DNA of 64,000 nucleotides, from positions 8,221 to 72,220 of the forward strand of contig JBFFRY010000009.1 of assembly GCA_041572755.1 (NCBI GenBank), written 5' to 3'. Shown piece by piece: positions 7,360 through 29,585 of this stretch. The DNA is from Acidimicrobiia bacterium. Lineage in GTDB: Bacteria; Actinomycetota; Acidimicrobiia; Spongiisociales; UBA11373. The notes below the pieces were generated by a model, which saw only the letters and a program-made list of their open reading frames with translations, searched no databases and had not been told where the DNA came from. The translations under genes were made by a program, and so were the position numbers. Numbering within the stretch: the stretch's first letter is position 1; each line of letters opens with the position of its first letter.

Positions 7360-7593
7360 CCGACGAGAGGAGGCGCTTTGGTGCGGGGCAACGCATCGTG
7401 ATGATCATGGCGATCACCCTCGATAACAGAAGCCATCAGCCCAAGTCGGGCGGTTGTAGGCGGGCCCCATCGCCTCTGCGACCCATGATACAGCCGCGTC
7501 AGAACCACTCAGCACGCATCACGGTTCGTGTCACCCTGATCGAAGGGGGCGTAGGCTTTCCGTCTGGGAGGGGGTGTTGGGGAAGAAGACCCC

Positions 7594-12725: not shown

Positions 12726-13736
12726 TCAGGAGCGCGGCGCCGGATCCAGATGGCGATGTGCCCCGGTGCGCAGGTGACAAGCGGCCACGTGGACCCGCTC
12801 ACCCTCGACCGGTAGCAGCTCGGGTTGGTCGGCGTCGCAGATCTCCCGAACCGCAATCGGACAGCGGGGGTGAAAGCGACACCCCGCCGGGGGGTTCAAC
12901 GGGCTGGGAACGTCGCCCTGGAGTACCACCCGGGCCCGCCGCAGGGATGGATCCGGGATGGGAATCGCCGACAGCAGTGCCTGCGTGTATGGGTGGGTGG
13001 GGTTGGCGTAGAGCGTGTCGCGATCGGTGATCTCGACCACCTTCCCCAGGTACATGACGGCTACCCGATCGCTGATGTGCTCCACCACGGCCAGGTTGTG
13101 GGCGATGAACAACAGAGTGAGATCGAGCTCACCCTGCAGCTCGCGGAGGAGATTGAGTACCTGCGCCTGCACCGACACGTCCAGGGCGGAGACCGGCTCG
13201 TCGGCGACCACGAAGTCGGGCTTGAGGATCAGCGCCCTGGCGATGCCGATCCTCTGCCGCTGCCCCCCGGAGAACTCATGGGGAAACCTTCGGGAGTGAT
13301 ACGGCTCCAGACCGACGAGATCAAGCATCTCCAGCACGCGCTCGTGGCGCTCGTCGGCGTCGCCGATGCCGTGAATCCTGAGACCCTCCGAGATGCTTTG
13401 ACCCACGGGACTGCGGGGATCCAACGACGAGAACGGGTCCTGGAAGATGATCTGGACCTTCCGGCGCAACTCCTTCAATTCCTTCCCTTCGGCATGGGCC
13501 ATGTCGGAACCCGAGAAGTTGACCGTGCCTTCGGTGGGATCGAGCAGCCTCACGAGCAGTCGACCCAGGGTCGTCTTTCCGCACCCCGACTCCCCGACCA
13601 GCCCGACCGATTCACCCTGGGCGATGTCGAACGAGACGTTGTCCACCGCCCGGACGTTGGCGACCGTGCGGCGGAGAACGCCTCCCTTGATGGGGAACTC
13701 CTTCGAGAGGTTGCGGATCTCGACGAGATTGGTCAC
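12726..13736 (-). CDS. oligopeptide/dipeptide ABC ATPase (OppF/DppF-like)
   Basis: [25 protein letters not shown]-terminal CRFHPRC. Confidence 0.95.
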
Positions 13737-14740
13737 TCAGCGCCCTCCTCGTAGAGCCAGCAACGAGCGGTGTGTTGCTCCCCGATCTGTATCAGTTCGG
13801 GCTTCTCGGTGAGGCACTTCTCCAGACCGGCTTCCACGCGCACGTGGCACCGCTCGGCGAACCGGCATCCGGTGGGAAGGTCGATCAGGTTGGGGACGTT
13901 CCCCGGGATCACTTCCAACTCGCTCTTGACATGGCCCAGCACCGGAACCGATCCAATCAATCCCTGGGTGTAGGGGTGTTTGGGGTCCGAGAAGAGGGTC
14001 TCGACATCGGTCTCCTCGACGATCTCCCCGGCGTACATGACGGCCACCCGATCGGCCATTTCGGCGACGACGCCGAGATCGTGAGTGATGAGGATCACTG
14101 CGGTGTTCGAGTCTCGTTGGAGATCGCGCATCAGGTCGAGGATCTGTGCCTGGATCGTGACGTCGAGAGCCGTGGTGGGCTCGTCGGCGATCAACAACTC
14201 CGGCTCGCACGCCAGCGCCATTGCGATCATCACACGTTGCGCCATGCCTCCAGAGAACTCGTGGGGATACGACTTCACCCTCTCAACCGGATCGGGGATT
14301 CCGACCCGCCTCAGCATCTCCACCGCCTGCTCCCGCTCCGCGGCCTTCTTCATGTTGCGATGGATCTCAAAGACCTCGGAGATCTGGGCGCCGACCCGGA
14401 ACACCGGGTTCAGGGAAGACTGCGGCTGCTGGAAGATCATCGCTATGTGCTCGCCGCGCAGCTCGCGAAGCTCCCTCCGGGACATCCCCATGAGGTCCCG
14501 GCCGTCGAACCGAACGGTTCCTGATTCGATCCTCCCGGGCTGTCCCACCAGACCCATGATCGAGAACGATGTGACGCTCTTTCCGCAGCCGGACTCTCCC
14601 ACGAGTCCGAGCACCTCACCCCTGCGCACGTCGAAGCTCACGCCGTCGACGGCCTTGACGACGCCGTCGCGAGTGTGGAAGTACGTGCGGAGATCTCTCA
14701 CCTCGAGAAGCGGAGCGCCGGTGTCGTCTACCGATGCCAT
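13733..14740 (-). CDS. oligopeptide/dipeptide ABC ATPase (OppD/DppD-like)
   Basis: [24 protein letters not shown]; start ATG 14740 coupled to the permease stop. Confidence 0.95.
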
Positions 14741-15693
14741 CAGTCTGAAAGTGAGGGATCGAGGGCGTCGCGCAGGCCGTCGCCGAGCAGATTGAACCCG
14801 AGGACGGTGATCATGATCGCCACCCCGGGGAAGAACGTGAGATGGGGCGCGGTGAAGAGCTGGTTCCGCTCGTCGGCCAGCATCGCTCCCCACTCGGCCT
14901 GAGGCGGCTGGGCCCCGAGCCCGAGAAAGCCGAACGCGGCTGCATCGAGGATCGCGGTGGCGATACCGAGAGTTGCAATGACCACCAGGGGAGTGAGTGC
15001 ATTGGGCACAACTCGAGTTCCGAGGATTCTGAGCCTGCCGGCTCCCAGCGCCTGCGACGCGGCAACGAAATCGAGTTCCTTGATCGACAGCACACCGGCC
15101 CGCATGACGCGGGCATAGGCGGGGATCGAAACGATCGCGATCGCCAGGAGCGTGTTCCGTAACCCCGGTCCGAGGGCCGATACGATCGCGATGGCCAGCA
15201 GAAGTGCCGGGAACCCGAGCACGACATCCATCACTCGCATGATGATGTTGTCGACCCAACCGCCCCAGAAGCCGGCCACCGCCCCGAGCAGAGACCCAAC
15301 GCTGAGGGCAACGAGCACCGTCGTGAAACCGACGGACAGGCTCACGCGGGATCCGTAGATCACCCGGCTGAACTCATCGCGGAAGTTGCCGTCGAGCCCC
15401 ATGATGAACTGGGGCTTGTCCTCGTCGCATCCGAAGAGGTGCACGCAGGGTGAAGCGCGACGTTCCACACCCGGTTCCCCGATGAAGTCCTGGTTGGGAT
15501 CGTGGGGTGCGAGGAGAGGGGCCAGCAGTGCCACGAGCACCATGAAGCCGATGATCACCAACCCGATCACTCCGCCCTTGCGGCGGAGCAGGCGTCGCCA
15601 GGCGCCGCGCCACAGCCCGGTCGGCCTGTCGAGCAGCCGGGTCTCAGTCTGCATCCGTTCCATCTCGCGGGTTCGTCGCCTCAATTGGAACAT
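14740..15693 (-). CDS. peptide ABC permease (OppC/DppC-like)
   Basis: SRVIYGSRVSL, EAA-type loop FVAASQALGAG, PPQAEWG; start at 15693 or 15663. Confidence 0.93.
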   Translation of the reverse strand: MFQLRRRTREMERMQTETRLLDRPTGLWRGAWRRLLRRKGGVIGLVIIGFMVLVALLAPLLAPHDPNQDFIGEPGVERRASPCVHLFGCDEDKPQFIMGLDGNFRDEFSRVIYGSRVSLSVGFTTVLVALSVGSLLGAVAGFWGGWVDNIIMRVMDVVLGFPALLLAIAIVSALGPGLRNTLLAIAIVSIPAYARVMRAGVLSIKELDFVAASQALGAGRLRILGTRVVPNALTPLVVIATLGIATAILDAAAFGFLGLGAQPPQAEWGAMLADERNQLFTAPHLTFFPGVAIMITVLGFNLLGDGLRDALDPSLSD

Positions 15694-16890: not shown

Positions 16891-18654
16891 TCACTCAGAA
16901 GGAGCGTTGATGACGTCGTTCCACAGGTAGGTGTAGTAGGTCCACGCACCGGTGTTGCCGACGTGCAGCGGGCTCGAAGCGTCGATGCCGGCCTCCCAGG
17001 AGACCACGACATCGTTGGCGTCGAAGGTCGAACCGTCGTGGAAGACAACGCCTTCCTTGAGGTCGCAGGTCCACTCCGTCAAGTCGGCGTTCGGCACGCA
17101 GTCGTTCGCCAACCTCGGGATGACCTCACCCGAGAACACGTCGTATCCGAGCAGTGGCTCGATCACCTGCAGGCAGACGTCGAACGACTCACCGTCCGAC
17201 TCATCAGCGCAGTACAGGCTGATCGGCTCGGCGCTCTGCATGTACACGAGGGTGTCCTTGCCGGGATCCATCGACGCGAAGTCCGGGGGTCCGAACAACG
17301 TGACGGCGGCCGGGGCGTTGTCGACGGATCCGAGAGCTGCGGCGGCGAAGCCACCCCATGCAATCGGCACCATCGGGACGAGGTCCCGGATGGCGTTGTT
17401 CGCCCGCCCGTAGACCTCGTTGATCTCGTCGATGTCCGTGAGCGGCTGCCCTTCGCCGAGCGGTCCGGTGATCTCCGGATGCGAAGTACCGAACTGGGTC
17501 ACTTCGGGACCGAAGTGGAAGTCGAGGAAGTTGGTGACGTGCGGGTAGTCGCCCGTCCATCCCAGCATGTGGAACCCGTTGAGGCGTCCGGCCTGGGACT
17601 CCTCGATGAAGGCTCCCGACTCCATTTCGATGACCTCGACCTCGACGCCGAGGTTCTCACGCAACTGCGTCTGAATCTCGACGGCGATGAAGCCGGGGCC
17701 GGGCAGGTAGTCGCGCACGACGTCGCGGTAGTAGATGGCCGTCTGGAATCCCTCTTCGACACCGGCATCGCGCAGCATTTGCCTCGCCGTCTCCGGATCG
17801 AAGTCGTACCAGGGGTCGCCGGCACAGCCGCCGGGCACGCCGCACGGCACGAAGTGAGTGGCGACCGACGATCCGGCCGGGTAGAAGTTGTCGACGATCC
17901 GCTGACGGTCGATACCCATGGCAAAGGCCCTGCGCACGTTCACGTCGTCGAACGGCGGGAACGTGTTTGTCATGCCGAGATAGAAGATGTTCGGGCTGGC
18001 GCCGGGCAGGAACTGCAGGTTTGCGTCGTCCTGGACGGTCGTGAAATCGTCCGGGCCGAGCTTGGCGATCACATCGACCGTGCCGATGTTGAGCGCCTGC
18101 AGCCGGGCTGCCGACTCCGCCTGCCACTGCACCACCAGCGTGTCGAACACCGGCTGGCTGCCGTAGTAGTCGTCGAACCTGTCCATCACGACCTGCGAAC
18201 CGGCCTCCCAAGTGTTCAGCTGGAACGGCCCGGTGCCGATCGGGTTGCGCAGCAACTGCTCACCGCCGCCACCCGTCGCCACGAGGTACTCCTCCGGCTG
18301 AATGCCGAAGACACCGAATGCCGCGATCTGCTTGAACGCCGGGGTCGGCTTGCAGAGCGAGAAAGTGACCTCGTACTGGCCGGTCGCCTCGATCGTGTTG
18401 ATGATGCTGCCCGAGCCGTCGGCGGCGCAGCCTGCTTGGTTCACTACCGACTTGCCTTCGAACGGGACCGACGTGTCGGGTGGCGCCTCAGTGGTGGTCG
18501 CCGCCTCAGTCGTTGCCGTTCCCTCGGTTGTCGCCGTTCCCTCGGTCGTCTCCGCCGCCTCGCTCGTGGTGGCGGCGTCGTCGTCATCACCGCACGCCGC
18601 TGCAACCAGAGCAAGCGCCAGCATGAGGGCCAGCAACCTCGTTGCTCTTCTCAT
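16891..18654 (-). CDS. family-5 (OppA/DppA-like) substrate-binding lipoprotein, apparently circularly permuted
   Basis: Lipobox AAAC; PIGTGPF, VRRAFAMGIDR; the family-5 N-terminal signature (LANDCVPNADLTEWTCDLKEGVVFHDG) is at the C-terminus. Confidence 0.92.
   Translation of the reverse strand: MRRATRLLALMLALALVAAACGDDDDAATTSEAAETTEGTATTEGTATTEAATTTEAPPDTSVPFEGKSVVNQAGCAADGSGSIINTIEATGQYEVTFSLCKPTPAFKQIAAFGVFGIQPEEYLVATGGGGEQLLRNPIGTGPFQLNTWEAGSQVVMDRFDDYYGSQPVFDTLVVQWQAESAARLQALNIGTVDVIAKLGPDDFTTVQDDANLQFLPGASPNIFYLGMTNTFPPFDDVNVRRAFAMGIDRQRIVDNFYPAGSSVATHFVPCGVPGGCAGDPWYDFDPETARQMLRDAGVEEGFQTAIYYRDVVRDYLPGPGFIAVEIQTQLRENLGVEVEVIEMESGAFIEESQAGRLNGFHMLGWTGDYPHVTNFLDFHFGPEVTQFGTSHPEITGPLGEGQPLTDIDEINEVYGRANNAIRDLVPMVPIAWGGFAAAALGSVDNAPAAVTLFGPPDFASMDPGKDTLVYMQSAEPISLYCADESDGESFDVCLQVIEPLLGYDVFSGEVIPRLANDCVPNADLTEWTCDLKEGVVFHDGSTFDANDVVVSWEAGIDASSPLHVGNTGAWTYYTYLWNDVINAPSE
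18515..18550 (-). repeat. 18-bp tandem duplication in the SBP Thr-rich linker
   Basis: GCCGTTCCCTCGGT(T/C)GTC x2 on the + strand, encoding TTEGTA twice. Confidence 0.8.
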
Positions 18655-21234: not shown

Positions 21235-22320
21235 ATGCGTATCCACCTCCTCGAGCCCTACTTCACGGGGTCGCACCGTCAGTGGGCCGAGGGGTATCGG
21301 GAGCACAGTCGGCACGAGGTGCGGCTCGTGACCCACGAGGGCCAGTTCTGGAAGTGGCGGCTCCGGGGCGGATTCGCAACGATCGCCGAGGCCCTCGACG
21401 AGGAGGTCCGTGCGCACGGGGAACCCGATGTTCTCCTGGCGACCTCGATGCTGGACCTGGCGGGCCTGCTGGGCATCACGAGGCATCGAGCCCCGGCGGC
21501 GCTGTACATGCATGAGAACCAGCTCACCTACCCGACCTCCGGGAGGACTCGCGTCGAGATGGACTACGCACTCGTCAACTGGTTTGCCGCCCTCGCCGCC
21601 GATGCGATCGCGTTCAACTCCGACTACCACTTCCGAGCCTTCTTCGAGGCCCTCCCGGCGATGCTGGGGACGGCGCCCGACCGGCGACACCTCCACCTCA
21701 TCCCGGCCGTGGAGCAGCGTTCGTCGGTCCTGCCGGTCGGCGTGGACCTGGCCCGACTGGACGGGATCTCCCGGCGGCGCTCCTCCCCTCCTCTCGTGCT
21801 GTGGAATCACCGCTGGGATCCCGACAAGAGACTCGACATCTTCCTCGGGGTGCTCGGCGAACTGGCCGTCGCCGGTCCCGACTTCAGGGTGGCGCTGGCC
21901 GGAGAGCAGTTCGTGGCCCAGCCCGAGGAGCACGCCGCGGCAATCGAAGCTCTCGGGGAGCGGGTGGTGCACGTCGGCCACCTTCCTCCGGCCTCGTACG
22001 ACAGGCTGCTCGGCGAGGCCGACCTCGTGGTGAGCACCGCCGAACAAGAGTTCTTCGGCGTTTCGATCACCGAGGCGGTCTATGCCGGGGCGTTCCCCGT
22101 GCTCCCGGATCTGCTGGTCTACCCGGAGCGAATCCCCGCCGAGTTCCACGAGTTGTGTCTGTATCGCGGCAGGCGGGGCCTGGCGGAGAGGCTTCGGTGG
22201 GCGGTGGAACACCCGGTGGAGGCCGCCGAGGTCGCCGCCCGCCTTCGGCCCGTCATGGGGGGCGCCGACTGGTCGGTGATGGCCCCCCGCTACGACGACT
22301 GGCTGGAGACGATCGCATAG
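21235..22320 (+). CDS. DUF3524/GT-B glycosyltransferase (GTDC1/QTMAN-like)
   Basis: LLEPYFTGSHRQW, WKWRLRG, YMHENQLTYP, WNHRWDPDK, EFFG motifs. Confidence 0.85.
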   Translation: MRIHLLEPYFTGSHRQWAEGYREHSRHEVRLVTHEGQFWKWRLRGGFATIAEALDEEVRAHGEPDVLLATSMLDLAGLLGITRHRAPAALYMHENQLTYPTSGRTRVEMDYALVNWFAALAADAIAFNSDYHFRAFFEALPAMLGTAPDRRHLHLIPAVEQRSSVLPVGVDLARLDGISRRRSSPPLVLWNHRWDPDKRLDIFLGVLGELAVAGPDFRVALAGEQFVAQPEEHAAAIEALGERVVHVGHLPPASYDRLLGEADLVVSTAEQEFFGVSITEAVYAGAFPVLPDLLVYPERIPAEFHELCLYRGRRGLAERLRWAVEHPVEAAEVAARLRPVMGGADWSVMAPRYDDWLETIA

Positions 22321-29510: not shown

Positions 29511-29511
29511 G

Positions 29512-29585
29512 TCGGGACGGCCGGATTTGAACCGGCGACCTCAGCGTCCCGAACGCTGCGCGCTGCCAAACTGCGCCACGTCCCG
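29512..29585 (-). tRNA. tRNA-Pro (anticodon CGG), CCA not encoded
   Basis: 74-nt cloverleaf CGGGACG...CAGCG-TTCGGGA-CGCTG...TTCAAAT...CGTCCCG-A. Confidence 0.97.

Follow-up and report, generated by a model that had tools for sequence, protein, structure and literature searches.

The 64,000-nt stretch analysed here, called the window below, belongs to contig JBFFRY010000009.1 of an Acidimicrobiia bacterium (assembly GCA_041572755.1). The only family-5 substrate-binding protein (SBP) gene in the window was the open reading frame (ORF) at 16891-18654 on the minus strand, which encoded 587 amino acids (aa), with an ATG start, a stop codon within this range and an intact frame. Its start codon lay about 120 nt from the divergent dnaX gene, and the four partner genes downstream of it, encoding permeases and ATPases of the Dpp/Opp type, were all intact. 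An earlier note on this DNA had proposed that the protein is a circularly permuted SBP of the DppA/OppA type, its canonical N-terminal block (N-block) being moved to the C-terminus, and that the oppBCDF-like genes beside it are complete; the four intact genes bore out the second statement. The results obtained here indicated that the SBP is very probably a natural circular permutant of the DppA/OppA-type (cluster C, family 5) fold, functional and serving the adjacent importer.

Pfam search of the SBP found PF00496 (SBP_bac_5) alone and no match to a Peripla_BP family. The PF00496 match scored 232.8 bits (gathering cutoff 32.4) and was split into two stretches, in line with the two matches that the earlier note had expected. 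The larger stretch, residues 82-383, corresponded to positions 62-363 of the 368-position profile, so that it started at 62 and not at 1. Standard domain models thus report a partial "middle" match because the chain order of the SBP is rotated.

Alignment with PDB sequences by phmmer displayed the swapped order directly. Residues 83-432 of the SBP matched residues 122-476 of E. coli DppA (independent E-value (i-E) 1.7e-37, about 26% identity), while residues 467/468-575 matched DppA 1/2-116 (i-E 0.0087 for 1dpe and 0.0025 for 8z1y). With a canonical metagenome relative (P0264), the same arrangement was obtained at higher significance for the N-block: SBP 468-574 aligned with P0264 54-159 (E 8.6e-17) and SBP 65-434 with P0264 143-518 (E 1.5e-46). 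The alignments with DppA and P0264 confirmed the proposed permutation and also its placement of the N-block at the extreme C-terminus (residues 467-587). The relocated block aligned to canonical N-termini and was not collinear with canonical C-termini.

Between the two blocks, SBP residues 433-466 (34 aa) stood in for DppA 477-507 (31 aa), the connector being about 3 residues longer. The canonical C-terminal tail was therefore retained and ran nearly straight into the canonical first strand. The new ends of the SBP mapped to one site of the canonical chain, at DppA ~116 and ~122. DppA 2-476 was fully covered by the two SBP blocks and the length-matched tail, each element being present as a single copy, and the collinear chain topology of DppA/OppA was absent from the SBP, in which the blocks stood in exchanged order. 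Block hidden Markov models (HMMs) and ORF inspection found no second N-block in residues 1-82 or upstream. The mature SBP had 528 residues, the length of one fold. None of the NCBIfam equivalogs reached its cutoff for the SBP; the DppA equivalog NF043070 scored 147.7 bits against a cutoff of 1005, and the SBP is therefore not a DppA orthologue.

The signal peptide ended in VAAAC, with Cys21 as the lipobox cysteine. In the subfamily alignment A1 the Cys column was at least 90% conserved (consensus LVxAACG), and many columns of the relocated N-block were invariant. The claims of an intact frame and a lipobox thus stood. The tether, residues 22-59, was often left uncovered in alignments of homologues (query coverage 86-89%).

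An AlphaFold2 model of the SBP, a check named by the earlier note, was built on the 74-sequence alignment A1 and was confident, with a mean predicted local distance difference test score (pLDDT) of 90.8 and a predicted template modelling score (pTM) of 0.88; the junction of the old termini contained no weak region. The best PDB matches found by Foldseek were the dipeptide-binding proteins 5F1Q, 1DPP and 3M8U. Alignments with low root mean square deviation (~3 Å) covered about 370-400 of 528 columns (template modelling score ~0.64), and this partial coverage is consistent with what a sequential aligner would be expected to return for the predicted permuted fold. No PDB chain aligned end to end with the SBP in the phmmer and Foldseek searches.

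Table 1. Features of the SBP gene and of the four importer genes, with window coordinates and strand.
Feature	Position	Strand	Basis
Lipoprotein signal peptide, residues 1-21 (MRRATRLLALMLALALVAAAC), lipobox Cys21	18592..18654	-	Sequence; family alignment A1
Low-complexity tether, residues 22-59	18478..18591	-	Composition: 13 Thr, 9 Ala, 6 Glu, 5 Asp of 39 counted
Class-specific N-terminal extension, residues 60-82, with Cys76	18409..18477	-	Model pLDDT 81-93, short strand
Main block, residues 83-432 (rest of domain II, domain I core, domain III; R314, D369)	17359..18408	-	Alignments
Canonical C-terminal tail and junction, residues 433-466, fused to old N-terminus	17257..17358	-	Alignment; pLDDT 87-97
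Relocated N-block, residues 467-587 (DppA 1-~120: domain I first strand and domain II first half)	16894..17256	-	Alignments
SBP stop codon	16891-16893	-	ORF
DppB/OppB-type permease, 359 aa	15698..16777	-	PF00528 and PF19300
DppC/OppC-type permease, 317 aa from ATG at 15693	14740..15693	-	PF12911 OppC_N and PF00528
DppD/OppD-type ATPase, 335 aa	13733..14740	-	PF00005 and PF08352 oligo_HPY
DppF/OppF-type ATPase, 336 aa, GTG start	12726..13736	-	PF00005 and PF08352; ORF list

The architecture of the window SBP (main block, tail, N-block) was labelled class A. According to the block HMMs, all of the best 120 homologues, which had 53-86% identity and came for the most part from metagenome bins of Acidimicrobiia and Chloroflexota, had the permuted order, with exactly one copy of each block. 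When 1.84 billion 50%-identity representatives were searched exhaustively with HMMER, 596 matched at E<=1e-30, and the best 150 were classified. The order of the window SBP was shared by about 108 of these 150, each matching it in one collinear stretch, and it extended down to 28% identity; seven were canonical, the first appearing at about E 1e-52, and most of the others were fragments. The classification used the two large blocks, the HMM of the 34-residue tail and junction having matched only 15 of the ~108 permuted representatives. In all, 256 proteins of class A order were collected.

A query spanning the junction (residues 395-587) matched 26 species genomes from four phyla (Chloroflexota, Actinomycetota, Acidobacteriota and Alphaproteobacteria); a survey of the taxonomic distribution had been suggested in the earlier note. 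The named groups with junction-spanning copies were Ca. Leptofilum, Ardenticatenaceae and Anaerolineae (Chloroflexota), Acidimicrobiia, Acidobacteriota and Hyphomicrobiaceae. Two permeases followed the SBP gene in 25 of the 26 junction-positive loci, and outside Chloroflexota two ATPases did so too. Partner proteins in the related loci were 56-73% identical to those of the window (60-69% for the DppB/OppB-type permease). No cultured organism with the SBP gene was identifiable from the cluster names.

Class A domains were also found fused behind SBP_bac_3, Peripla_BP_6, zinc-ribbon, TIR-like and Ser/Thr-kinase modules, and giant multi-SBP chains occurred, among them the N-MID-N-MID tandem fusion P0158 (1202 aa) and another chain with four MID blocks (2843 aa); gene-calling errors are possible in both groups. 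The fusion and multi-SBP proteins were P0121, P0126, P0127, P0124, P0141, P0158, P0254 and P0230.

By the published DppA/OppA limits, domain II of DppA spans residues ~34-182. The new termini of the SBP (DppA ~116/122) lie inside this domain. Domains I and II together form lobe 1 (PMC10924461), and the tether of the SBP therefore exits from the other sub-domain of the same lobe. The suggestion of the earlier note that the lipid anchor would attach at a different lobe was accordingly not upheld: lobe 1 is retained and only the sub-domain differs. Its argument that the canonical termini lie close together in domain I, which makes such a permutation feasible, agreed with the published description of cluster C proteins, in which both ends of the chain lie side by side in domain I (PMC10924461). 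The altered exit of the tether, from domain II instead of domain I, may be functionally relevant.

By alignment, R314 of the SBP corresponded to DppA R355, the partner of the dipeptide carboxylate in the 1995 structures, and D369 corresponded to DppA D408; both residues were invariant in A1. In DppA, D408 forms a salt bridge to the dipeptide's amino terminus (PMC3295651). Since the equivalents of D408 and R355 are conserved, a dipeptide-like ligand is a likely candidate, which we rate at about an even chance.

Three cysteine pairs of the SBP (Cys271/277, 482/494 and 519/530) showed near-perfect co-occurrence as pairs. The Cys76/101 pair occurred in 85 of 95 class A representatives and in all 5 of class B, and in none of the 7 canonical and the 2 class C representatives (classes B and C are described below); it was scored by position, as the strict motif C-x-[YFWH]-G-G missed the window SBP itself. 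By this pattern of co-occurrence, the four pairs would behave as disulfides, and a Cys76-Cys101 disulfide probably staples the N-terminal extension to the first hairpin.

The SBP would thus be a lipid-anchored Venus-flytrap receptor with an unchanged binding cleft, in which the Asp and the Arg would clamp the two ends of a dipeptide. The chain would run from the middle of domain II (DppA ~122) to domain I, domain III and the canonical C-terminal strand, and then through the short connector to the first strand of the canonical order and on into domain II, of which it would cover the first half before stopping at DppA ~120. A tether of about 40 residues and the lipid anchor would leave the protein from domain II, not from domain I. 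The receptor would capture dipeptide-like or short peptide ligands and pass them to the two permeases, and transport would be driven by the two ATPases of a DppBCDF-type importer.

Three further permutation classes, each with a normal lipoprotein signal peptide, were found among the relatives. Class B (P0135 and about 65 clusters from Chloroflexi, on contigs of up to 594 kb) was cut at query position ~300, which equals DppA ~340 in lobe 2, and had the order MID217-349, tail, N-block, MID2-217. Class C (P0258, at locus L028 29-1786, and P0393) came from a Ca. Methanofastidiosia archaeon bin and carried a C-terminal hydrophobic membrane anchor; its cut lay at a third site close to the lobe boundary (DppA ~268), and its nearest relative was a canonical protein (~44% identity). 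Class D (P0263 and about 51 clusters from Anaerolineales, on contigs of up to 1 Mb) was cut in the same loop as class B and had a canonical parent. The anchors of classes B and D sit on the other lobe, unlike that of class A. In a rough neighbour-joining (NJ) tree of the re-ordered sequences, class B fell inside class A and class C among the canonical proteins.

Comparison of class B with class A showed that P0135 and the class A protein P0329 had a common signal peptide and linker, behind which two mature segments were exchanged (85% and 72% identity). At the locus level, mature segments of 67-85% identity were exchanged between the class B genes (L027 489-2216 and L029 9001-10737) and the class A counterpart (L030 9001-10701). 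L029 and L030 occupied the same slot of an ATPase-ATPase-SBP-permease-permease-ferritin operon, with partners 73-83% identical. The AlphaFold2 model of class B had a pTM of 0.80, and low confidence was limited to the tether and the new connector. By these comparisons, class A gave rise to class B, the signal peptide and the operon slot staying the same.

For class D, alignment of P0263 with the canonical P0443 showed that the segments were exchanged (85% and 90% identity) and that the signal peptides aligned. The class D locus L032 (4001-5776) and the canonical locus L033 (1086-2777) had DNA synteny on both flanks and a common terminator hairpin, only two coding segments being exchanged. Two scars were found. 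The internal junction of class D retained E-G-S (GAA GGT TCx), the three codons that close the linker in the canonical gene; they stood after the old C-terminus (...YFEGV..) and before the old first strand (..TFVFG). At the 3' end of class D, the last four canonical codons, the stop codon and the 3' flank were retained (..FVTE* vs ..VITE*). A tandem in-frame duplication with two later deletions would be expected to leave such scars. The intermediate would have been SP-linker-[A-B]-[EGS-A-B], from which A would have been deleted from copy 1 and B from copy 2.

A similar route may be proposed for class A, in which the mature region would have been duplicated in tandem and in frame behind one signal peptide; copy 1 would then have lost its first part and copy 2 its last part. 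We infer this rather than read it from the junctions, because class A is too old to keep scars, and consider it somewhat better than an even chance. In-frame SBP fusions were common among the relatives, including N-MID-N-MID (P0158) and SBP_bac_3, Peripla_BP_6 or Bmp modules joined to family-5 domains, and such fusions would be raw material for permutation. A broader proposal makes the family-5 fold of Chloroflexota, Actinomycetota and some archaea a hot spot at which permutation recurred serially, with at least four events at three loop sites, one of which re-permuted a permuted protein in an unchanged operon. The events would be selected and not neutral, the tether exit (domain I, domain II or lobe 2) being moved relative to the permease-docking face so that delivery is tuned. 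We regard this proposal as possible but doubtful.

Several other explanations of the block order were weighed. The order could be an artefact or mark a dead gene, arising from mis-assembly or from fragment fusion of two SBP genes into a non-functional ORF; a fragment fusion is conceivable, since tandem and fused SBP genes exist in relatives (P0158, N-MID-N-MID, is one). The permuted order, however, recurred across four phyla, in hundreds of independent assemblies with 28-86% identity, column conservation was strong throughout, the relocated block included, and the intact frame, signal peptide and operon were accompanied by a confident AlphaFold2 model. The mis-assembly or pseudogene reading was rejected as extremely unlikely on the conservation of order and block counts. 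The other possibility considered in the earlier note, a partial duplication that kept a normal N-block and added a second one at the C-terminus, has a negligible probability, and nothing was found in its favour. One N-block only was found, after the main block, in the SBP and in 120 of 120 homologues, residues 1-82 held none, the gene begins ~120 nt before dnaX, and the 528 mature residues make one fold; the single N-block detected by the block HMMs led to rejection of this reading. It is also quite improbable that the 5' part of a neighbouring paralogue supplied the C-terminal block by fusion and fission, after the gene had lost its own N-block. In-frame multi-SBP fusions are common in these lineages, a neighbouring paralogue is a possible donor, class A has no scars to tell the routes apart, and fusion and fission were raised for the cluster B protein TpMglB-2 (PMC4990184). 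The two recent events (A to B and canonical to D), on the other hand, were clean swaps of the proteins' own segments at 67-90% identity, both behind the same signal peptide at the same locus, which favours self-duplication. By either route, self-duplication or capture, the end product is a circular permutant.

With regard to function, the SBP might be chiefly a sensor or receptor in chemotaxis or signalling, or a binder of a non-peptide ligand such as a metal chelate, an opine or a sugar. The fusions of class A domains with Ser/Thr-kinase, TIR-like and zinc-ribbon modules in other proteins would fit such a role, as would the diversity of family-5 ligands, the PDB matches including nickel, opine, sialic acid and heme binders. 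A complete ATP-binding cassette (ABC) importer operon nevertheless begins with or contains the gene in 25 of the 26 related loci as well as in the window, and its downstream genes appear translationally coupled; the Asp and the Arg that clamp the ends of the peptide do not vary within the subfamily, and the best structural and sequence matches were dipeptide binders. A sensory or non-peptide function is therefore unlikely, and the peptide importer remains the preferred assignment.

Some observations weigh against the interpretation of the SBP as a functional permutant, or against parts of it. The match of the N-block to DppA is weak by itself (i-E 0.003-0.009), and the significance of the block comes from the closer canonical relatives, which align strongly. 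The structural claim is drawn from a predicted model, and every relative found came from an uncultured organism known from a metagenome or a metagenome-assembled genome (MAG). R314 or D369 was replaced in about a third of class A representatives, so that the ligand class varies within class A. The scars of duplication and deletion were found in class D, not in class A. In addition, six proteins of class A order (P0178, P0179, P0187, P0221, P0247 and P0268) had neither the N-terminal extension nor the Cys pair, and these deep-branching proteins were not separated from the canonical proteins in the rough NJ tree. They may represent an independent permutation at the class A site; a single origin of class A is accordingly not claimed, the tree being only a rough guide.

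Comparison with known systems showed that the SBP had the same three-domain complement as E. coli DppA and other cluster C proteins (1DPP/1DPE, 5F1Q, 3M8U), the equivalents of D408 and R355, and the same partner types (OppC_N, oligo_HPY). It differed from DppA in that the chain was rotated by about 120 residues, with the old termini fused and the new termini in domain II, and in that it was a lipoprotein with a long Thr/Ala/Glu tether and four class- or subfamily-specific Cys pairs.

Treponema pallidum Tp0684 (TpMglB-2) is the founding member of the circularly permuted "cluster Bc / type Ic" sugar-binding proteins, and its authors speculated that tethering was the selective reason for the permutation (PMC4990184). 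Both cases are natural permutations of lipid-tethered SBPs in which the N-terminal strands of one lobe were moved to the C-terminus. TpMglB-2 belongs to cluster B (Peripla_BP fold) and has no sequence homology to the window SBP; it is an analogue and not a relative. Its relocated part has little similarity to canonical N-termini, whereas that of the window SBP was clearly alignable. Ligand binding is retained in TpMglB-2, as is predicted for the window SBP. Unlike in the TpMglB-2 case, class A was itself re-permuted and recent canonical/permuted pairs exist.

The DppABCD importer of Mycobacterium tuberculosis (Mtb) has a canonical N-terminal loop and a triacyl anchor that run along DppB and are required for assembly (PMC10954201). 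Mtb DppA resembles the window SBP in being a lipid-anchored cluster C protein of an actinobacterium that works with a Dpp-type translocator, and its structure is the best model of the docking of such SBPs, via the hinge and the N-lobe (PMC10954201). In the window SBP, by comparison, the N-terminus would leave domain II through a tether of ~40 residues, and for this reason it should not be able to make the Mtb-type contact with DppB in the same way.

Literature searches for a permuted cluster C or family 5 SBP found none and gave only the cluster B case and engineered permutants. The statement in the earlier note that the class had not been described was consistent with full-text literature searches, NCBIfam and the PDB, none of them exhaustive. 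Class A, a large and conserved class, is thus provisionally considered undescribed, with no curated family model (NCBIfam), solved structure (PDB) or paper.

Few bacterial receptors have been studied as well as the cluster C binding proteins, which also serve widely as biosensor scaffolds. The canonical proteins and classes A, B, C and D form a natural series for studying the origin of permutation, and the pairs at 85-90% identity in orthologous loci, with their junction scars, are rare direct evidence for the duplication-deletion route. The natural pairs are also matched controls for the effect of connectivity and tether position on folding, hinge motion and translocator docking, and they inform the choice of loops that can safely take an engineered permutation or an inserted domain.

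Within the operon, the start of the DppD-type ATPase gene overlapped the stop codon of the preceding permease gene (14738-14742), and the GTG start of the DppF-type ATPase gene overlapped the stop of the preceding ATPase gene by 4 nt (13733-13736). These permease-ATPase and ATPase-ATPase overlaps suggest translational coupling in the operon. Scans for promoters and terminators around the operon found nothing that exceeded the shuffled expectation.

Elsewhere in the window, a fluoride riboswitch (crcB motif) was found at 7420-7483 on the minus strand (49.3 bits, gathering score 34). The sole tRNA gene in the 64 kb was tRNA-Pro (CGG) at 29511-29585 on the minus strand. A glycosyltransferase of 361 aa was encoded at 21235-22320 on the plus strand, downstream of dnaX and recR; it matched Glycos_transf_1 and QTMAN_N (E 3.6e-52), the latter being the N-terminal domain of tRNA-queuosine alpha-mannosyltransferase.

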